64,000 nucleotides of DNA from Protoeuglena noctilucae (lineage: Eukaryota): the NCBI GenBank assembly GCA_958009085.1, contig OY253674.1:620001-684000 (forward strand). The letters run 5' to 3'. Positions 15,376 through 26,100 of the stretch are shown piece after piece. The notes below the pieces were generated by a model. That model was not told the origin of the DNA. It saw nothing but the letters and a program-made list of their open reading frames with translations, and made no database searches. Position 1 is the first letter of the stretch. Each line of letters starts with the position of its first letter. A program made the position numbers and the translations under genes.

Positions 15376-17674
15376 ATGCCTGGACCGGGCAGCCGCGCTG
15401 GTCCGGCTTCGGTTTCTGGGAGAGGTGGTTACGGCAATTCGAACCGGCGCCCGAAGCCGCTCCGGGACAGGTCAAGTCAGCGCGGCAAGCACGGGAAGTT
15501 CCTCCATCAAACGATTGAAATCTCATCGGACAGCAGCACAGCTCACTCGGACGAAGAGGACGTCCAGGTAGCCCGCGTCGAGCCTGGCGCAAGCCCTGAG
15601 AGTGGCGAGGGGGGGATCGAGAGAAATTGGCGGAATCTGGCGAGCCCGGCATGCAGGGGAAGCCTCCATTACGCGATGTCTAACTCATGGCCGCAGGACA
15701 GCCCAAGCTCCTCGGAGACAGGCCCGCTGGTGGGCCGTATCGCTTCCAAAGAGTTCTTGCCGACGCGGACCGGCGATTTATCGGCGTCTTCACCGGCCGG
15801 GTCGTGTCGCACCGCAAGGGGCTGTACTCGGTGCGGTATATCGATGACGACGAGGAGGACTTCACGCCAGCGGAGCTGGAGCGCCTGCTCGTCGACGTGA
15901 CCAACGAGCCCCCCCGAGCGAGCGCAGGTGACCAGCGGCAACGCCCGAGATCCTGCCGGCTTGGCGAACCTCTCGGCATCATTCAGATACACAAGAGTTT
16001 TTCCCGGCCCGCAGCAGAAGGCAGAGAGGTGGCGTTCCTCGGAGTCCGGCGGGTCTCGCGCCCCGCATCGCCGGGGAAGCCGTTCGTGGCTTTCTGTCAA
16101 AACGTGGTGGCGAAGGGTGCGAGGCCGTGCCGGCCTGTCCTGAGGTCGGCCGGTGCTGGAGCTTAAGTCACGTCACGCTGTGCTGTGCTTCGCGCAGGCG
16201 TCAAGGGTAAGAAAGTTATCATTGGCGACGAAAGGGATTGCATCATCGGAAGCTACCAGACGAGCTTGGAGGCCGCCTGGAGGCACGACCACTTCATCGT
16301 GGCGGTGAGGGCAGGCAATTGTTGGAACGTCCACGCGCCAAGCCCCTTCGCTGCGTGAGACGGGACGCCCTTTTGCTGTCACCAGGAGAAGTGCCTCAAC
16401 GTCGACGGCACGCTCCCCAAGCTCAATTTCCCGAAAGTCTATCGCGCGTGGATCGAGCGGCAAGTGGCCCTCAAGGTCTTCCCGGACCCCGGGGAGGGTT
16501 TCTACGATGCTGACCTAAGCCTCGCAGCGGCAGCGCTCATCCCTGTCGCCGGGGAGGAGAAGAAGGGCCGCAAGCGAAGGCGGTTGATCACCGGGGGACC
16601 GGGGAGGGGGACCCACGCAGCATCGCCCCCCGCCTCGCCCCCGGCTCCCCTGCCTGCGCGCGTGCGGGCCGTCTCCCGCCCCTCGCCGCCTCGAGCCTCT
16701 CCGCCCAGCAAGTCTCAGCATGCCGAGGTCCCGTCTGCACCCTCGGAGCGACCAACCCATGCCGCTTCGCTCCACGCCCCGCCACGCACCCCCTCGCCAG
16801 TCCGTTCCCCAGCGCCGCCCGCGGACGCCAACCACGCCCATCGCTCGACCTCGCCCAAGCCATCGGACCCAGCCAAGCTGCCTGTCCAAGGCTGGGCGGA
16901 CGCCCACTCTGTCCCGGAGGTGAAATTCCCCGTCAGCGGCCTCTGATAGCCGCCTCCGATAGCTCCAAGCAGCCCCGTCCTTGCCCCGGCACCTCTGCAA
17001 GACTCTCTCCGTCGACTGAAGCCGTGGAAAATTCCCTCACTGCCCCCGCGACCTCAACCACCTCGCAAGCCCTTCCTGCCCCCCCAGCCCGCCTCACAAC
17101 AGGCCGAGCCCTACCCCGGGGTCACCACGGAGCTCACAGGGGGCGTCCCTTCGTGGGTGTCCATGGTTCCCTGCCGAATGACGCCGACCGGGTACATCCA
17201 CCTGGGCTATTTTTACGATCCGGAGAGCGCAGCACGCGCGAGGGACACCTTCATTTGCATCAACCACTGGCGCGATATCGACGGGCGGCTCCTGGACCTC
17301 AGCTTCCCTGACTCGTCGGGTGCGTGCGTCGGTTGCTGGCGTCTCTGCCGCTGCTGTGCCCAGCGATGGACTCTGACAAGGGCGCACCAGTGTTGCACGC
17401 CGCAGGGAGGGGGCAGGAGTACCTGTCCCTGCCGGAGGTGGACCCCGCGAGCCCCTTCTGCACCCTCGCGCCCGGCCCCAACGGCCCAGGGGCCGCCAAT
17501 ATGAGCAACGGGCCAACGCAGTTGCCACTACCAGTTTGCTTGGCAGCCGTCACCAGGGGCTCGCATTCATCGTTGAGCAAGCTTCTGTCAGCAAGCTATT
17601 GCATTCGCTTGCTGCACGCATGGCTTGGTCCGGTTACACATGGTTGCATGCACTTGCTATGGTGCATGCTATGA
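15376..17674 (+). CDS. Tudor-like domain + two AP2-like DNA-binding domains; apparent frameshift near 15757
   Basis: Tudor-like LVGRIASKEF / FTGRVVSHRKGLYSVRYIDDDEEDF. First AP2-like: FLGVRRV...CIIGSYQTSLEAAWRHD...PKLNFP. Second AP2-like: YPGVT...YIHLGYFYDPESAARARD...LSFP. NLS-like KKGRKRRR. Confidence 0.65.
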
Positions 17675-17692
17675 AACATGTCAGCGCCACTG

Positions 17693-20600
17693 CTACTCCC
17701 CGTCGCTGCTCGCTGCCTTCTCGTCGCCCTCCCCGCCGCCGTCGCCCTCCGTCGGCCCAGGCGCCATGCGCACCAGCTTGAGGTGCCCAAACGCGTCGCG
17801 CCCTGCGACAAGGTCAAGCGCAAATCCAACAGGTGTGACGATCCATCGCGGGGGCGCTCCGAAGCAACAGAGCCCACGCCGGGCGTGACATGCAAGGCCA
17901 GCTGCTTGGGCGCAAGTCGCGACGTCGCACCTGTGTGGCGGGAGCTGTAGTGCGCCGCGCTCTTCTCCGTCTGGAAGCGCCGCCCCACGTTCTTGGCCAG
18001 CAAGTCGGTGACCACGTTGGAGGACCGATCGAGGCCCCCGCCCGTCCTCGTGAGGCGGAGCTCGGATGGGGCACACATGGCGGGCGTGGCGTGGAACCAC
18101 GGGCTCTGCAGCGCCTGCTGTGCGGTGACGCGCCGGACAGGGTGGTAGTCGAGCATCCCGCGCAGCAGCTGGAAGCCCTCGTCGTCCAGGTCACCGAGCT
18201 GGGCCCTGCGTGGGGGCAGAAGCAACAACCGCATCGTCGCCCGGCGACCCAATCCAGTCCACGCGTGCGTGCCACTCTCGTCCGCAAGCACCTGTGTCCA
18301 TCCCCTTGACCTCGTGCACCCCCGGCAGCGCCCGTGGCCCTCACTCACCGAAGTCTGTCGTAAGTAGGCTCCTCCGTGCCGACCATCCCGGCCACCATGC
18401 GCCATTCGGGCAGTGTTTCAAAAAAGGGACACGAGGCCATGTTCGGGCGGCCGCACTTGGAGAATATGACTCTGAGCTGGTCCAATTCGGACTCGCCCTT
18501 GAATATGTGGTCCCCAATGACAATGTAGGCAAAGATGCATCCGACCGACCACATGTCGGCGGGCGGCCCGTAGGTCATCGTCCCCAGCAGCATCTCTGCG
18601 GGAGTGGGGAGCGAGGCCATGGCTTTCTTTTAAAATTCTTAACTCACATGCATGCTAGACTGCAAGCCAGACCGCCAAGAAAGGACCAAAGGATTGAGAA
18701 TGCGAGCAGGCGTCACTGCCAAGCATGGCTCTAGGGCCCAAGCCAGGCGAACCCAGTCCGCGGCGCCTTACCTGGTGGCCGGAACCACATGGATATCAGA
18801 TTGGGCGTCTGCTTCTGCTCGTGCCAGTTGGGGCCGATGTAGCGTGACAGCCCAAAGTCTGCCAGCTTGACCGTGCCGTGGCGGTCGAGGAGCACGTTCG
18901 CGGGCTTGAGGTCCCTGTGCTCGTATCCGAGCGCGTGCATGACGGAGAGGCCGAGGAGCACCTGGTGCAGCAAGCACTTGACTTCAGCAATCGTCGGGCG
19001 CACCTCCCTCACGTGCCCCTGCAAATCGTGGTCCATGTACTCCAGGACTTGGTAGAAACCCTCGCGGCCCGCGTCCGGGACCATCTCGATGCACCGGACG
19101 ACGTTCTCGTGGACCACGGACTCGAACACCTTGATCTCCCGCACCACCGTGATGGGCACGCCGCCCGGCTGGCGCAGCGACACGTGCTTGATGGCGCAGA
19201 GGGTCCCCTTGTCCTTGTCTCGCGCCAGGAACACCCGGGAGTACGTCCCCTGCCCCAGCAACTTGTCCTCCATCACGTGATACCGGTCCGACACCTCCGC
19301 TCCCTCCTGGCCCAGGGAAGTAGCTTCGCAATTGCTGCCCCGCGACTCTCCCAGCACTCCCGGGGGCCCATACGTGGCGCCCAGTCCCGCGTGTATCACC
19401 GTCACCGCGCCGGCTGCGCCCTGCGACGCCTGGCCGCCGGCGCCGCCCACTGGAGCGCTCTGCACCCCACGCCCGCCGGCCTCCGCGCCCGTACGCGAGC
19501 GCTTCGACGCAGTGCCCGGCACCCCCTCCGCCTCGTCCAAGGCTGGGGACACTTCTCGGCTGCGCTTGAACCGCTGCCTGCGCACAGAAGACTCGCAGCG
19601 CCCTCAGAAACAGACAGGCGCAAGGGCACAGGGTCGCATGGGCGACTGGTTGGGACACCTGGTGCCCATGGCTGGGACTGCCACGCTGAGAGAGGCACAA
19701 ACATGCCAGCAGCCTCACCGCTCCGGGTCGTCGTCGCTGTCCCCCTCTTCCCCTGGCGGAGGCGCGCCCAATGCCGGCCTGTGGATTTCCCGCACCTCCC
19801 GTCGGCCGTCTGGGTACGTCACGACCATCTCCCTGTCCCCCGTCTCGACCGTCCCGAGCCTGCAAGCACAGTAACGCGGCAACAGCTGTTCTGATCGCCT
19901 CGTAGCGACCCAAGCCTCCACGTCAAGCCCGGGGGTGTGCACGGCGACCGCTCCCGCTAAGGCACGCAACAGGGCAGCCATGGCAACTCCCCTCGCCCCC
20001 GTCGCACCTGAAAGCAATGCCCTTCTTCTGCAGCAGCTTGTCCTGGTTCTTGATCCGATAGTCCTGCTGCGTCGCAGGCGCCGCCGTGGACTGCGGCCCC
20101 ACCCCAGCCCCCGCTCCCTCCCTGTGGCCAGCAGCTGGTCGCACGAGCCCTCGCCCATCCCCATCCGCATCCCCGCCAGCCTCTGTCTCTGAATAGAACC
20201 CCAGACCGGCTCGGTTGGTCCCGCTGGTGCCGACCGCCTGAATCGGATCCGCCCTGCCTGCCCTATCCGCGCCAAGCCCTTGGCCCTCCTGGTGCCCCAT
20301 CAAAGCCATCAGACGCACCGCGACCGCAGAGTACTCCGGCTGCGCCTCCGCGCCCTCCCTCATCTTCTTCGCAATCGCCTCGTTCAGCTTCTGTGGTGCG
20401 AGACAATGGGCGATGCAGGTGTTGCCCGTCCCCAGACCTGCCCTGAACTAACAATTGCCCTGACCACCTGCCCTGCCACGTTGTTGCATGGGGGCGCGTG
20501 TGCGGCACCCCTTCCGCCGCTCACCTTGCCCTTCCTGGCCAGCTCCTCATCCACGTGGTTCATGACCAGGTTCAGCGCCCTCGTCTGCTTGTCCAGCAAT

Positions 20601-22669
20601 GACTCGTTCATGGCCCGCATGGACGTCACAAACGCCATGTCCCCCATCATCTTGCTGCGGACAGCCGACGATTCGCGTCTCGCTATACCTGTCGTCACGT
20701 CACCTACGCTGGCCATCCCAACGCCGCCCACCTCAACGCAGCCCACCCCAGCAAAGCCCACCCCAACGCAGGCCACCACCACAAGCCACCGTGCAGCCCA
20801 CCCCTCCTGCTCCCTGAGCTCCACATCCCCACTCGCCTGAACCGCACGAGCGTCTCGATGGATTCTGCGTCCGTCGCAGCCTCGTGTGCCTTGGTCAGGG
20901 CCTCGACGCAGGCTCGGTACACGGGCGACTGTCGTGGCCGCATGCCCTTGGCCACCACGTACCGCTCCGAGTTGACCATCCTGCTGCGGTGCGGCTTCAC
21001 GACCCACACGCGGTCGAAGAGCAGGCAGAGCACGTACATGAGCGACGCCGAGAAGTCTGCGAGAGCGAGACGCGAGCGCACGTCCCTGCACCGACGCAGC
21101 TGCGCCGGACATCACCCACCAAGCACGCCCTGCGTCGCGGCACGGTGTCATGACGATGTTGGCGTTCGAGTCTCACCAGAGAAGGTGTCGAAGAGCTTGC
21201 ACACGAAGTTCCCACCTGTCTTGAGCACCCTGGCGGCGATGAGGTGCTCCGCCGTGATGCAGCGCGTCGACAGCAGCTCCTGGATGTTCTCCAAATGGTA
21301 CCCCTCCTGGTCCTTGCCGATCTCGAAACCTCCGTCCGACACGGCGATGTCCACGCGCCCCTCGCCCCGCTCGTCGCGCTCGATCTCCGTCACAAAGCTG
21401 GCCACGTTGGAAGGGAAGTAGACGTTCCCGGTGCCGTCGGCGCCGTACAGCGGGCGGAAAGCCGGCTCGTCGAAGAGACGCTTGTACCACAAGTCGTTCT
21501 TGTCCATGCCCTCCCAACGCAGCGTGATGCCGTAGCCATTCACGGCCTGGGTGCCCGTGAACCTGGGCAACTGCGGGCGAGGCTAGCCCCCGGTACTTGA
21601 CACAGATACAAAAACCGCCAGGTGGCCAGGCGACCTCGCGAGCCAGGGCCACGTACCTGCGTCAAGAGCATCTGCGTGAAGGCCCCCGGGCCCCCGCAAA
21701 TGTCCAGGAAGACGCTCTTCGGGGCCCTGCCCTGTGCAGGCTCCAAGTTGTCGAACAGGTTTACGGCTGCGAGCGTTCGAGAGCGCGGCCGCTGAGCGCG
21801 GGTCAGGCGCGTCCGTGCTCCAGAGTGAACACCACCCCGGCTCGCCTACGTGGATCTCCATGAGCTTGTCCCCGGCGCGGTTAAAGAATTCCCTCCCACC
21901 CTTCCTGTCCTGGACGAAGATTCTGTCCCGGGCCTCGTAGTACGTATCCGAATTGCCCGTGTCAAAAACCACGTCCATCCGCGTCTTCTCCCTCATGAGC
22001 TCGATCACCTGCAGGTGAAAAGACCTCGCGGTAGGAATGTCGCTGAAGTCTTGTGTACTGCGGAGGCCACTGCGGCCCCTCCGGCAGCTCCTGGCCGCTG
22101 AGCCGTGCCTACACGAACCTGGTTCCGCGGCGCCCAGTTGCCCGTCACGAGGCGGTTCTCATCCATGGTGGACACCGGCCGTACTTCCGCAGGTCGAACG
22201 AGAATCTCCCAGGGCTCGCACTCTGCGCTGTCCGCCAAAGCCCGAGCTGCGAGCAGCAGACGACCGAGGTGTGCTTCGCGCGCCCCCCCTGCCGAAAAAC
22301 CGGGCCTGGCTCAGCGAAGGCCCATCGCGCGGACCTTCAGGGTCGATATCGATGCGATACACCTCCGTCCTGTCGTCTAAACGGTGGTCTACGATGGACC
22401 GGCGGGCATCACGTGCCCCGCTCCACGCCAGCTCCTCTCCCGGCTCGCTCTTGGCCGTGGCGCGACCCCTGCGATGCACATATCACTCTCCACCTTAAGC
22501 ATAATGCCCAGCCGTGCTAGATGGCGACAAGGCAGGAGGTGCACAGAGAGAGAGTGCTTCACCTTCCCCTCCCACCCCTGCCACGCCCACGGCCCCTCCT
22601 GCCACCCCTAACCAACATGGGAGGGGCGCTATCCATCATCCCCACCGAGAGGAAGTTGCTATTGCTCAT
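17693..22669 (-). CDS. Predicted fusion protein: RG-rich N-terminus + CMTR1-like cap-specific mRNA 2'-O-methyltransferase (FtsJ/RrmJ fold) + G-patch + cyclin-dependent kinase (CDK9/CDKC-like)
   Basis: MTase: FFNRAGDKLMEI, FLDICGGPGAF, YGADGTGNV, AVSDGGF, GGNFVCKLFDTF, KPHRSRMVNSERYVV. G-patch: RLMALMGHQEGQGLGADRAGRADPI...RAGLGF. Kinase: GQGTYSRV, AIK, PITVVRE, HRDLKPAN, DFG, WFRPPEMLLG, DMWSVGC. All linking introns are phase-consistent. The domains are confident; the single-transcript model is less so. Confidence 0.78.
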
Positions 22670-23155
22670 GGATCCCCCCTGCCGCGCGCCGGCTCAGCCG
22701 GGATGAGGGGTTGAGGCGCTAACTCGCGCCCATCCTTGACTGCCACGTCAGTCTCCCTGCAGAGGGTTTCTCAGCCCACCTTGACTCGGGCAGGTACCAG
22801 GTAGGGTCTTTCGTTGGGGTCATGCCTTTGTCTCCCGGAGCGGCAGCGGATGTGTCTCAAACAACGCCCTGATGGTTTCTTGCTTACGTCTTAGTGTTTG
22901 TGGGCCTTTGTTGGGCCGGGCCAGCGGGCCGATTTGCATGCAAACAGCCATTCCTCGACTCCTCATGTGACGTAGCCGAGAGGGGTCGACGATGGGGAAT
23001 TCGTGCACGCGCTGCTTCGGTGCAGCTCCGGAGGGGGCGGCTGGCGCGTACCGGGTCCATGAAAACACCCACCACCTCGGGCTCTCCATGCCTGTCGTGG
23101 CGGCCTTGACGGAGCCCAGCGGTGCGTAGCCGGGCACCTTTGCTGCGTTTCCAGG

Positions 23156-26100
23156 ATGCCATCGAATGTTCGAAATATATCCGACACCGTGCGGGACCAT
23201 GTGCGCCTCACGAGACGCTGGCGGAGCACGCGCGGGTGCGAAGGCGTCCGTTGGCTCAGATGTGCTTTTCCCGACCGTCCGCGAGTTTCTGCCGCCCCCG
23301 CAGCGAGCCGGACCTTACATGTTGCCGATACGTCGGCTCTGCTGAACGTCCCGCCTCTGAAGGCAGCGCAGTTCTCCCGGAGGGCGCCACCGCAACCCTT
23401 AGGTGGAGAGACGACGCTGACGGCCGCGGAGGTCGTCGCGTGGATGAATCCCGCTGCCGTGCTGTTCCATTCGCTGCCTGATATTCGACTGGTGAGCCTC
23501 TGCGAGGCCCGCGTGCCGCGCCGGAGCGCCACGTCCTCCCTTGACGTCTTTCACTTCGTGTCTCGACGCAGGGCGTCGCGGCGGGCCAGGATGGAGGCCC
23601 GCGATCCAAGCCCACGCTCATACTCAGCAAGCGTCTTCAGGGCGACACGACATCGGCGCTTAAGGCCGTCCTGAGGGCCCCTGTGTGGGGCGGCGCGACA
23701 TCGTGGCTCTTGATCCCGCTCCTCTGTCCGTCCAGGTGAGATTTGCGAGGCGATATGCGGTCATACTCACCTCTGTTGCGCTGAGCACAGGATGGCTGCC
23801 TCCCGCGACGCGTGCCCTTCCTTTGGGGCTCAACGTCCCAACGACATTCTGCGAGTGTGCGGACCTTCCCATGCCTCCCTGACCGCAGCCTAGAGCCTGG
23901 CGAGGCGGGTGTCTGCGCTATCGTCGACGCCGTGCTCGAGGCTGCGGCCCCCGCGCCCGGCACGGGCCCCGCGGCGGTGTCGATCGCAGCGCACCGTGCC
24001 ATCCTCTCCGTGTGTCAGTGCGAGAGTGCTGCGGTGTTGTTCCGGGAAAGTCAAGTCCGCCTGCTCTTGAAGATCCTTCTGGACACTCTGGTGAGCAGCG
24101 CGCCCCCTGCCGCGCCACGCTCGCTTTCCCATGGTCCCCGTGCACTCTGCCGTTGCTGGCGAGCGCTTTTCAACAAAGTCATGTTCAATTTCGTGCATGG
24201 TCGTCCGCAGATGGATCCGGGACTTCTTTGCCCGACCCCGGACCAGGAGGCGGCGCTGGACTTGCGCCCGCGCCATGCCTTTGGGGCCCGCAAGCAGAGC
24301 CGGCGGGCCATAAGCGCCCTCTGGCGCACCCAAGCCCTGCTCTCCATTCGCCGGCTCCTCACGGCCGCCAGCCTCAACCAGCTCGGGGCTGGGTTTGTGG
24401 AGGAGAGTGTCGTGTCGCTGGTGAACCTGGTGAGCGCCATTCCTGTGACTGTACCCATGCGCGGTGTCTGCTGTGGTGTAGACACAATGCTCTGATGCTC
24501 GCTGGCTCTCGACGCCATCGCCACTGCTGCTGGCGCCGACCTCTAAGGCCACGCACCCCGCCGCTCCGATCGCAGCTCCCTGCCATGGATGCCGTTTGGG
24601 TTTTGGAGGGCCTGCTCACCAACCCGACACTTGTCGAGGCGATCGGGCATGGCAAGCCGAGAAAGGCCCCGCCCGCTGCGGCCGTCCACGTCTTCGAGTC
24701 CATCGTCGCTCACGTGCTGCAAGCCTGGCAGGGACACAAGGGCCAAGACGACCCCAAGGCGGGGCTGAGGCAAGTCGCGGTCGCGCCTGTTGCATCGCCA
24801 CATGCGGCGCCCATGAGACGATGCCCGCCCTCGTGCTGACAGACCCGGGAACGAACGTTGCCGCACTTCCACGCAGCGCGGAGTCCACGCGGATGATCCG
24901 CCACGTGCTCAACAGCACGTGCCTGCCGCATGCGATGGGGACGTCGGGCGTGCTGGTGCAGGCGCGTGCGTGGCTCAAGTGCGCTGGGGTCGTGGCGCCC
25001 ACCGATGACCGCTACCCCGCGTACGAGAGCTGCCTTGCGGGGGAGTGGAGCGCCGCGCTCATGGTGGACCTCCTGGGCACGCTGATGTCCGCCAAGGTGC
25101 GCCACGTGCCCCTGTGGGGACCCTGAGAGACCCTCCACGATTGCCGATTGATGCGAGGGTACCAACCGCTGTGTGGGGCGGGTGCCGGAGGAAGTGGGTT
25201 TGCACATGACGTCCCACGCACAACACCCTCCGCGGTCTTGTCTTCTGCAGGGCACCGTGTCGGTGCTGGACAGCCACGGCCTTGCGCAAGTCATCGACAT
25301 GGTATTGGCCGGAGCGGCGGGCGAGCCAAGGGCGGCGCCGGCGAGGGGCGGAGGGCCCGAGTTTGCGCAAGACTCGGACCTCGACATCCGCCGCACCCAG
25401 AGCGGCCTCCTGGCGGGCCCGCCGCCTTCCACGGGGATAGTCACGTCGATCATGCCGGGTGGCGTGCCGGCGGCCATCGCAGGCCAGCGAGCGGGGTCGC
25501 TGCGGGAGACGACGCTACTGGTGGGAAGCAGGCGTGCGAGCAGCGCCCGCCCCAGTCACGCGCGAGGAGAGGAGCGCGCGCCCCCCGCGCCCCCCGCGCG
25601 CGAGTCGGGGGCTGAGGGAGGGTCGGTCGTGATGGGGGGGGAGGACTCGGCGGGCCCTGGGGAGCCCAGCGTGGCGGCGCTTTCAGGGCCCATCGAGGCG
25701 CCGCGCGCCAGCCCCACGAGCCTGCAAGTGAGGGCGCCCCCGCTGAGTGGTGTATATGGTCACCATCTCTACCCTTGTGTTTGCCTTTGCACCCGTGCAT
25801 CACGATATACTTGACTCTAACGTCGCGCCTGCCCCGCAGGTGATTTTGGCCATGCTGAAGAGCGACCAGGGTATGCCCCAGGCGGTCGTGCTGCGTTGCC
25901 TGCTGGAGCTGATACGCAGGGACACCACGGCGCCTCTCCCTGGCGCGCAAGAGGACGAGTTAGGGCCGAGTCACGGTGACCTGGCGGGCCTCTCGCCCCT
26001 GGCCTCCGTGGAGGCGGCGTTCCTGCACGTGCCAGCGGGCTCGAGTGGCGGGGTGTCCCGGGCGGGCAGCGAGGCGTCGGTCACGGCGCCCGGCGGTGGG

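Follow-up and report, generated by a model that had tools for sequence, protein, structure and literature searches.

A spliced gene of a probable chlorophyte alga is predicted to fuse a CMTR1-type cap methyltransferase with a CDK-type kinase

Introduction

Human CMTR1 is composed, according to PMC6071836, of a nuclear localisation signal, a G-patch (residues 85-133), an RFM domain (170-550), a guanylyltransferase-like (GT-like) domain and, at residues 755-790, a WW domain. Through this last domain it binds the Ser5-phosphorylated C-terminal domain (CTD) of RNA polymerase II (Pol II), and through its G-patch it binds DHX15. In S. pombe, according to PMC2825737, Cdk9 is co-isolated with capping enzymes, among them the cap methyltransferase Pcm1, which mediates both the recruitment of P-TEFb to chromatin and Ser2 phosphorylation. 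Here, we describe a locus, 22669..17693 on the minus strand of a 64,000-nucleotide (nt) stretch of DNA (hereafter the window: contig OY253674.1, positions 620,001 to 684,000, assembly GCA_958009085.1 of Protoeuglena noctilucae), which very probably is one nuclear gene of a GC-rich and probably chlorophyte alga, the spliced mRNA of which would be translated into a single 1115-residue protein that carries an old fusion. From the N-terminus, its parts are an RG repeat, a CMTR1-type FtsJ methyltransferase (MTase), a G-patch, a low-complexity linker of about 200 residues, a kinase of the cyclin-dependent (CDK) type and a conserved tail.

Like CMTR1, which is functionally tied to the Pol II CTD (PMC6071836), the predicted protein has an RrmJ/FtsJ MTase with a K-D-K-E tetrad and a G-patch in the same polypeptide. 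In CMTR1 the G-patch precedes the MTase, whereas here it follows it; the GT-like and WW parts of CMTR1 were not found by Pfam in the fused proteins; and CMTR1 is without a kinase, whereas the fused protein has a CDK domain in its C-terminal half. An earlier, preliminary description of this locus had characterised animal CMTR1 as having a G-patch, a WW domain that binds Ser5-phosphorylated CTD and no kinase, in agreement with that paper. The S. pombe pair of Cdk9 (P-TEFb) and Pcm1 is comparable in that a CTD and elongation CDK is physically linked to a cap methyltransferase, and the algal fusion would be its covalent counterpart. The pair differs in that Pcm1 is a guanine-N7 and not a ribose 2'-O enzyme, and in that its link to Cdk9 is non-covalent, between separate proteins.

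No published description of a cap methyltransferase-kinase fusion was found in the literature searched, supplements excluded. The words 'methyltransferase', 'kinase' and 'fusion' are absent from the main text of a pedinophyte genome preprint (10.1101/2021.10.04.463119), and 'kinase' is absent from the available part of a paper on CMTr evolution (PMC3113572), an earlier survey that, in the same part, reports Chlamydomonas to be without an hMTr1 orthologue. The parts are known, and their combination is already in the public record, where it is nameless. The preliminary description had regarded the architecture as belonging to no described protein. This stands insofar as no describing paper was found, and falls insofar as the architecture is on record as an NCBI protein (P0121, below) and probably as a cluster in the ESM Atlas.

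One gene and one spliced reading frame

Of the 13 introns in the gene model (Table 1), which was built from RNA joints, 12 are RNA-supported and one is inferred. The RNA data are four marine metatranscriptome runs (X1-X4) from one study and at most three samples, used as assembled contigs that were mapped to 16500-23500, with joint ambiguities of 0-2 bases settled as GT/GC..AG. The runs contain 0.31-0.50 of the sampled words of 17600-22750, which is the level expected of a spliced mRNA, and their contigs match the letters of the window without any difference. Every sampled word is present in four other runs, labelled 'organism A', which may represent the source genome. Twelve of the 15 joints listed (17 in all) are introns of the fused gene.

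Three of these introns are decisive for the fusion. The joint 20390>20525 (intron 20391-20524) is present in two of the four runs, with shorter sides of 130 and 37 nt; the joint 19858>20007 (intron 19860-20007) in three, with shorter sides of 125, 37 and 82 nt; and the joint 19576>19718 (intron 19578-19718) in all four, with shorter sides of 141, 141, 94 and 125 nt. As joints lacking the intron cannot be produced from genomic DNA in an RNA library, the three junctions exist in RNA, and at the latter two only the spliced form is present in the contigs. That these introns are GT-AG, in frame and of matching phase had been proposed from the letters alone, and both a script and the RNA joints bear this out to the base; the junctions 20008/19859 and 19719/19577, which had been singled out for a check in RNA, are the two crossed in three and four runs. 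Nine more introns of the gene are present as RNA joints, including a GC-AG intron (joint 20654>20837) and the tail intron 17803-17930, spliced in four of four runs. Two introns in total, 20655-20836 and 21767-21845 on the minus strand, carry GC-AG instead of GT-AG ends, and RNA joints exist for both.

The joined frame runs from ...ELARKGK into KLNEAIAKK...KKGIAFR, then into LGTVETGDREMVV...DDDPER and on into QRFKRSRE and the kinase. Exon 20008-20390 (383 nt) begins in phase 0 and finishes in phase 2, the phase in which the 141-nt linker exon both begins and finishes. The frame is open through 20133-20250 despite the lack of RNA cover there, and an in-frame stop lies upstream of the ATG at 22669. 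The GC content of third codon positions (GC3) in the model frame is 0.73-0.74 in the first two exons and 0.76-0.93 in all later ones (0.85 in the linker exon), and the introns are flat for codon-position GC at about 0.65; a GC3 dip to 0.62 at codons 501-550 corresponds to a Gly/Ala/Asp-rich stretch. At the 3' end, the RNA contigs of the gene stop at 17551-17596. The pentamer TGTAA, which we take to be the chlorophyte poly(A) signal, occurs just past the stop codon and is the probable poly(A) signal of this gene. Across the window, Rfam gave no match at the gathering threshold.

Contig depth cannot rank the parts of the gene, and differences in depth between kinase and MTase were not used as evidence; likewise, a lack of RNA cover at 20133-20250, in exon 1 or at 22584-22817 does not equal absence of transcription. 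Based on the spliced contigs and on two homologues, one of them intronless, the earlier claim of an MTase, a G-patch and a kinase fused in one gene and one open reading frame (ORF) is upheld, and we hold with high confidence that the locus is one gene encoding one polypeptide.

Table 1 Features of the fused gene, in positions of the window.
Feature	Position	Strand	Details
Whole coding sequence (CDS)	22669..17693	-	14 exons, 3348 nt, 1115 codons and stop; built from RNA joints; no internal stops
Exon 1	22563..22669	-	ATG at 22669; encodes the N-terminal RG/RGG repeat; no RNA cover
Intron 1 (inferred)	22469-22562	-	GT-AG, 94 nt, phase correct; no RNA cover
CMTR1-type RrmJ/FtsJ core (predicted)	20837..22008	-	Exons 21846-22008, 21657-21766, 21177-21570 and 20837-21056; introns here all RNA-supported
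Exon for C-terminal helical part of the MTase region	20525..20654	-	...DKQTRALNLVMNHVDEELARKGK; aligns with P0121 and L001
G-patch domain	20199..20330	-	Within exon 20008-20390; Pfam PF01585
Gap in RNA cover	20133..20250	-	118 nt; second half of G-patch and start of linker, same exon; covered in 0 of 4 runs
Intron	19860..20007	-	148 nt, GT-AG, phase 2
Linker exon	19719..19859	-	47 codons, LGTVETGDREMVV...DDDPER; both sides joined in RNA contigs
Intron	19578..19718	-	141 nt, GT-AG, phase 2
CDK-type kinase domain (predicted)	18094..19270	-	Exons 18772-19577, 18349-18595 and 17931-18205
C-terminal tail after kinase	17693..18093	-	...CAPSELR...HYSSRHTG...HLKL...; split by intron 17803-17930; stop codon 17693-17695
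TGTAA	17634..17638	-	About 55 nt past the stop; sole minus-strand TGTAA between 22900 and 17400 (script scan)

Relatives with the same fusion

Two further proteins share the order of parts of the window protein and can be aligned with it from end to end. P0121 is an 'unnamed protein product' at NCBI from Pedinophyceae sp. YPF-701, is 1123 amino acids (aa) long, carries both FtsJ and Pkinase and was the best of three matches for the 131-aa MTase exon among longer proteins; its identity to the window model is 49% over 105-529 (MTase and G-patch region) and 41% over 734-1091 (kinase). L001, found on a metagenome contig, is one intronless ATG-to-stop ORF of 1060 codons with the order RG repeat, FtsJ, G-patch-like stretch and Pkinase. 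As whole proteins, P0121 and L001 score 83.9 and 80.5 bits for FtsJ in Pfam, and L001 scores 167.9 bits for Pkinase. Overall identity is 45% between the window protein and P0121, 44% between the window protein and L001 and 59% between P0121 and L001. The three-way alignment keeps the N-terminal RG repeat, the motif for S-adenosylmethionine (SAM), the K-D-K-E tetrad, the kinase Lys, the cyclin-binding helix, the T-loop Thr and the C-terminal tail. The homologues differ in a degenerate G-patch and in the length of the linker (about 200 aa in the window protein, 90 in P0121 and 45 in L001), and L001 has no introns, compared with 13 in the window gene. The intronless ORF of L001 is strong evidence, independent of any splicing, that parts in this order are made as one polypeptide.

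Further carriers were rare. A word-index search with P0121 returned 64 proteins, with both families in P0121 alone. When 1.84 billion cluster representatives were searched exhaustively by phmmer with P0121 as query, no second protein scored higher than 280 bits, and the 330 other proteins collected match either the MTase part (46) or the kinase part (284), none of them both; on the question whether the architecture is widely catalogued, which bore on the novelty claimed earlier, no further fused protein was found among these representatives. A scan of metagenome contigs with the MTase alignment yielded 38 loci, in one of which, L001, a kinase follows the MTase (tblastn with the window model). 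Within 1.7-6 kb downstream of the MTase at L002, L004, L005, L006 and L011 there was no kinase match. FtsJ was found in none of the best 120 matches of a kinase-exon search among longer proteins, a list crowded by generic kinases and drawn from at most 8000 candidates, and so weak evidence of absence. The ESM Atlas cluster nearest to L001 has 76 members, all FtsJ plus Pkinase, with a representative of 1124 aa and a score of 0.92; it probably also holds the fusion architecture and is a lead only. On the sequences compared, the fusion is a rare natural architecture, present here in three organisms.

The ESM Atlas cluster bears the automatic name tRNA 2'-O-methyltransferase and the taxon label 'commonest Basidiomycota', derived from six members. 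Basidiomycete carriers of the fusion were considered on this account, and FtsJ was present in none of the five long basidiomycete-like kinases checked (P0259, P0253, P0299, P0262 and P0324), so that the label is not borne out. Two other combinations surfaced beside the fusion: P0201 (1090 aa, a phmmer match) unites XRN_N and XRN_M (5'-3' exonuclease), a CMTR1-like FtsJ and DUF4326 in one predicted protein, and P0129 joins Cyt-b5 to FtsJ.

The methyltransferase half and the G-patch

Pfam was run exon by exon from the second exon onwards. The FtsJ family (PF01728) matches three consecutive exons at profile positions 21-41, 72-141 and 147-180, and the 131-aa MTase exon alone reaches 26.3 bits (cut-off 24.1). 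No Pfam family was matched on the second to fourth exons of the gene, on the exon after the FtsJ core or on the linker exon; for the WW and guanylyltransferase families there was no match on the window exons scanned, P0121 or L001. The K-D-K-E tetrad, which had been pointed out earlier together with the catalytic motifs of the kinase, is found in AGDK, SDGGF, VCKLFD and NSERY; along with the SAM motif FLDICGGPGAFTQ it is kept in all three fused proteins, and the kinase motifs are likewise conserved in the two homologues. Human CMTR1 (4N48, E 8e-13) is the solved structure that the main MTase exon matches best, and its ADGGF and ICKTFD line up with SDGGF and VCKLFD. The exon has just two PDB matches at E<=0.001, both of them sequences of human CMTR1. 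The nearest named relatives are a 'cap1 methyltransferase' and CMTR1 of Balamuthia. The methyltransferase half is predicted to be a CMTR1-type cap 2'-O-ribose enzyme.

The G-patch of the window protein is recognised on exon 20008-20390 at residues 21-64 of the exon translation (PF01585, 38.7 bits, E 9.3e-10, cut-off 22), and it conforms to the consensus hhxxxGaxxGxGhGxxxxG. In the stretches of P0121 (residues ~520-570) and L001 (1920-2180) that align with it, the GxG core is lost. Downstream of the linker exon, the linker continues over the opening ~100 codons of exon 18772-19577 (19271-19577).

The kinase half and the origin of the fusion

Pkinase is matched with 115.3 bits by the first kinase exon and also by the next two. 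The G-loop GQGTYS, AIK, HRDLKPAN, DFG and RPPE are present and conserved in P0121 and L001, the cyclin-binding helix is PITVVRE in the window protein and PITGLRE and PVTGVRE in the homologues, and the T-loop Thr lies 12 residues ahead of the RPPE glutamate, a spacing that we take relative to CDK9. Compared with the PDB, the first kinase exon scores best against CDK12 (117 bits), followed by CDK13, CDK9 (105), yeast CTD kinase alpha (97) and then CDK2/1/5 (~90); its best 60 matches are CDK-family kinases or yeast CTD kinase. Of the six nearest kinases for which names were looked up, four are called RNA-polymerase-subunit kinase, CDKC-2-like or CDK12/13 by their sources. The likeness to CDK12/13, CDK9, plant CDKC and yeast Ctk1 thus lies in the PITVVRE helix, which resembles PITAIRE/PITALRE, in the T-loop Thr and in the best PDB matches of the N-lobe exon; these transcription CDKs differ in that their BLASTP identity to the P0121 kinase is at most 38% and in that none of them carries a methyltransferase. 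The kinase is predicted to be a divergent CDK, for which membership in CDK9/12/13/CDKC is plausible. Of the earlier assignment to the PITAIRE/PITALRE CDKs, the CDK family stands, with a PITVVRE helix; membership in CDK9/12/13/CDKC is not established, as the PDB rankings disagree and the tree places the clade outside that group.

Kinase trees were made with FastTree on 124 rows and with IQ-TREE (quick) on 44 rows chosen from those 124, without named CDK7, CDK10 or CDK1 rows. The fused kinases form a clade in both (FastTree support 99; IQ-TREE SH-aLRT 99), as do the fused MTases in a tree of 44 rows (SH-aLRT 95), and the topology (window,(P0121,L001)) is common to kinase and MTase trees. Because both domain trees have the same branching order, a single ancestral fusion with later vertical descent explains them most simply. 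In the 44-row tree the fused kinase clade sits on a long branch, with CDKC2 as the nearest named row by path, and lies outside the CDKG/CDK11-like group (99) and the CDK3 plus CDKE group. A support of 67 was obtained for the branch between the fused clade and P0277/P0288, one and the same edge at the midpoint root. In the 124-row tree, the rows nearest by path include the CDKG-clade members P0242 and P0237.

A possible coupling and its alternatives

The fusion protein could act at the 5' end of Pol II genes. Its kinase module, together with a cyclin, would bind and phosphorylate the Pol II CTD or an elongation factor (Spt5) and, through a covalent link, would keep the methyltransferase at the capped 5' end of the nascent RNA, on Pol II in early elongation. 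In this way the kinase module would replace the WW domain that tethers animal CMTR1 to Ser5-phosphorylated CTD, and the G-patch, where intact, might recruit or activate a DEAH helicase of the Prp43/DHX15 type. We infer both enzyme activities, their substrates and the cyclin and helicase partners, and such a coupling of CTD phosphorylation to cap1 methylation is offered tentatively, as somewhat less probable than an even chance. A further-reaching version would make the fused proteins a CDK lineage not recognised before and found nowhere but in the C-terminal half of cap1 methyltransferases, a 'Rosetta stone' wiring cap 2'-O-methylation to a CDK-driven checkpoint of early elongation (or splicing). 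Here a kinase-cyclin module and not a WW domain would put CMTR1 on Pol II, with the kinase perhaps gated by cap status; this we regard as speculative and, on balance, unlikely.

Several observations weigh against a single fusion protein that acts in this way. No single RNA contig covers the whole CDS, exon 1 is without cover, and the uncovered segment 20133-20250 may leave room for an internal transcription start; moreover, all RNA comes from the one study, and assembled contigs cannot reveal transcript ends or rare isoforms. In all three fused proteins, serine stands in place of the third glycine of the G-loop. The whole L001 kinase matches CDK11B best (185 bits), with about 175 bits for CDK13, CDK9, CDK12 and CDK7, and in the 44-row tree the fused clade falls outside the 28-row group of plant CDKC and insect CDK12 (support 94). 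Finally, the G-patch is degenerate in P0121 and L001, without a Pfam match at E<=0.001 and E<=1, respectively, and seems dispensable or decaying on that branch; helicase regulation can therefore not be a conserved core function of the fusion.

The gap in cover would be accommodated if the locus were two adjacent genes, one for the MTase and G-patch and one for the kinase, joined only occasionally by read-through and splicing, so that the fused ORF would be a minor chimera. In favour of this, retention of intron 20007-19860 would bring a stop codon at 19925-19923 into the frame, as computed in accordance with the stop at 19923 named earlier, with an in-frame ATG (MVVTYP) following at about 19828; in addition, rare variants drop out of contigs and transcript ends are not visible in them. 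However, only about 95 nt separate the hypothetical stop from that ATG, the minus strand holds no TGTAA between the domains, and the spliced form alone was seen at both junctions, in three and four of the four runs. The codon-position GC signal continues through the linker, the fusion recurs in P0121 and in the intronless ORF of L001, and the domain trees are congruent, all of which makes two genes highly improbable. The same gap and the same retained-intron stop would also allow a real fusion gene to give, in addition, kinase-only products from an internal start or MTase-G-patch products by intron retention, so that the domains could act separately, and the linker of the window protein is far longer than those of its homologues. 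Yet no joint, loose end or contig of such isoforms was present in the region (X1-X4 contigs), and L001, being intronless, could not give separate products by splicing; shorter products of this kind appear unlikely.

The main functional rival to a role at the capped 5' end is splicing or ribonucleoprotein remodelling, in which a CDK11-like kinase would phosphorylate components of the spliceosome, a DEAH helicase would be activated through the G-patch, and cap1 methylation would be an appended activity. CDK11 is linked to splicing and acts in spliceosome activation, and CDK11B is the top PDB score of the L001 kinase; P0242 and P0237, from the CDKG clade, are among the nearest rows of the 124-row tree. 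Furthermore, G-patch proteins activate helicases in splicing and ribosome biogenesis (PMC6071836). These points are set against the position of the fused clade outside the CDKG group (SH-aLRT 99) with CDKC2 as the nearest named row in the 44-row tree, the best scores of the window kinase exon for CDK12/13/9, the names of four of the six nearest kinases and the degenerate G-patch in two of the three fused proteins, and we consider a splicing role about as unlikely as the separate products. Alternatively, the kinase domain could be catalytically dead and serve the methyltransferase only as a docking or cyclin-binding module, in keeping with the serine in the G-loop and the long branch of the clade. 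Ser or Ala in place of the third G-loop glycine is compatible with kinase activity, and the AIK Lys, the PITVVRE Glu, HRDLKPAN, DFG, RPPE and the T-loop Thr are kept among proteins that are 41-61% identical, so that a dead kinase is very unlikely. A fused protein with an active CDK at the 5' end of Pol II genes remains the reading we prefer.

Neighbouring transcripts

A convergent neighbour on the plus strand (16500-17571) has RNA-supported GT-AG introns, with joints 16917>17086 and 17318>17405 (one- or two-base offset). Its exon 17088-17318 (+) had by eye been thought AP2-like and has no Pfam match at E<=0.01. The 3' ends of the two transcripts overlap, contigs of the neighbour ending at 17555-17571 and those of the fused gene at 17551-17596, and the longest contig (4291 nt, X1) runs through the fused gene and the convergent neighbour via these overlapping ends. 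Upstream of the gene start, low-depth contigs (X1 and X2) lie at 22818-23500, with 22584-22817 uncovered; they may be a separate divergent transcript or pieces of a 5' untranslated region.

In each of the four runs, a contig matches only 20946-20976 and 21271-21293. Its joint skips 294 nt, has CA..GA ends and is flanked by loose ends of 255 nt on both sides. It is probably a related methyltransferase mRNA of another organism, or of a paralogue, and not a splice form.

Implications

With regard to annotation, the long gene model is correct, and dividing it into two genes would be a mistake. The gene shows a CMTR1-type enzyme, as predicted above, in an apparently green-algal lineage, P0121 being from a pedinophyte. 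What is known of the talk between capping enzymes and the kinases that release Pol II into elongation comes mostly from yeast and animal complexes of a non-covalent kind. The fusion offers a single recombinant protein in which the coupling of methylation to a kinase can be tested. If both halves have their predicted activities, a conserved fusion of a cap1 methyltransferase with a CDK would argue for simultaneous action of the two on one and the same complex.

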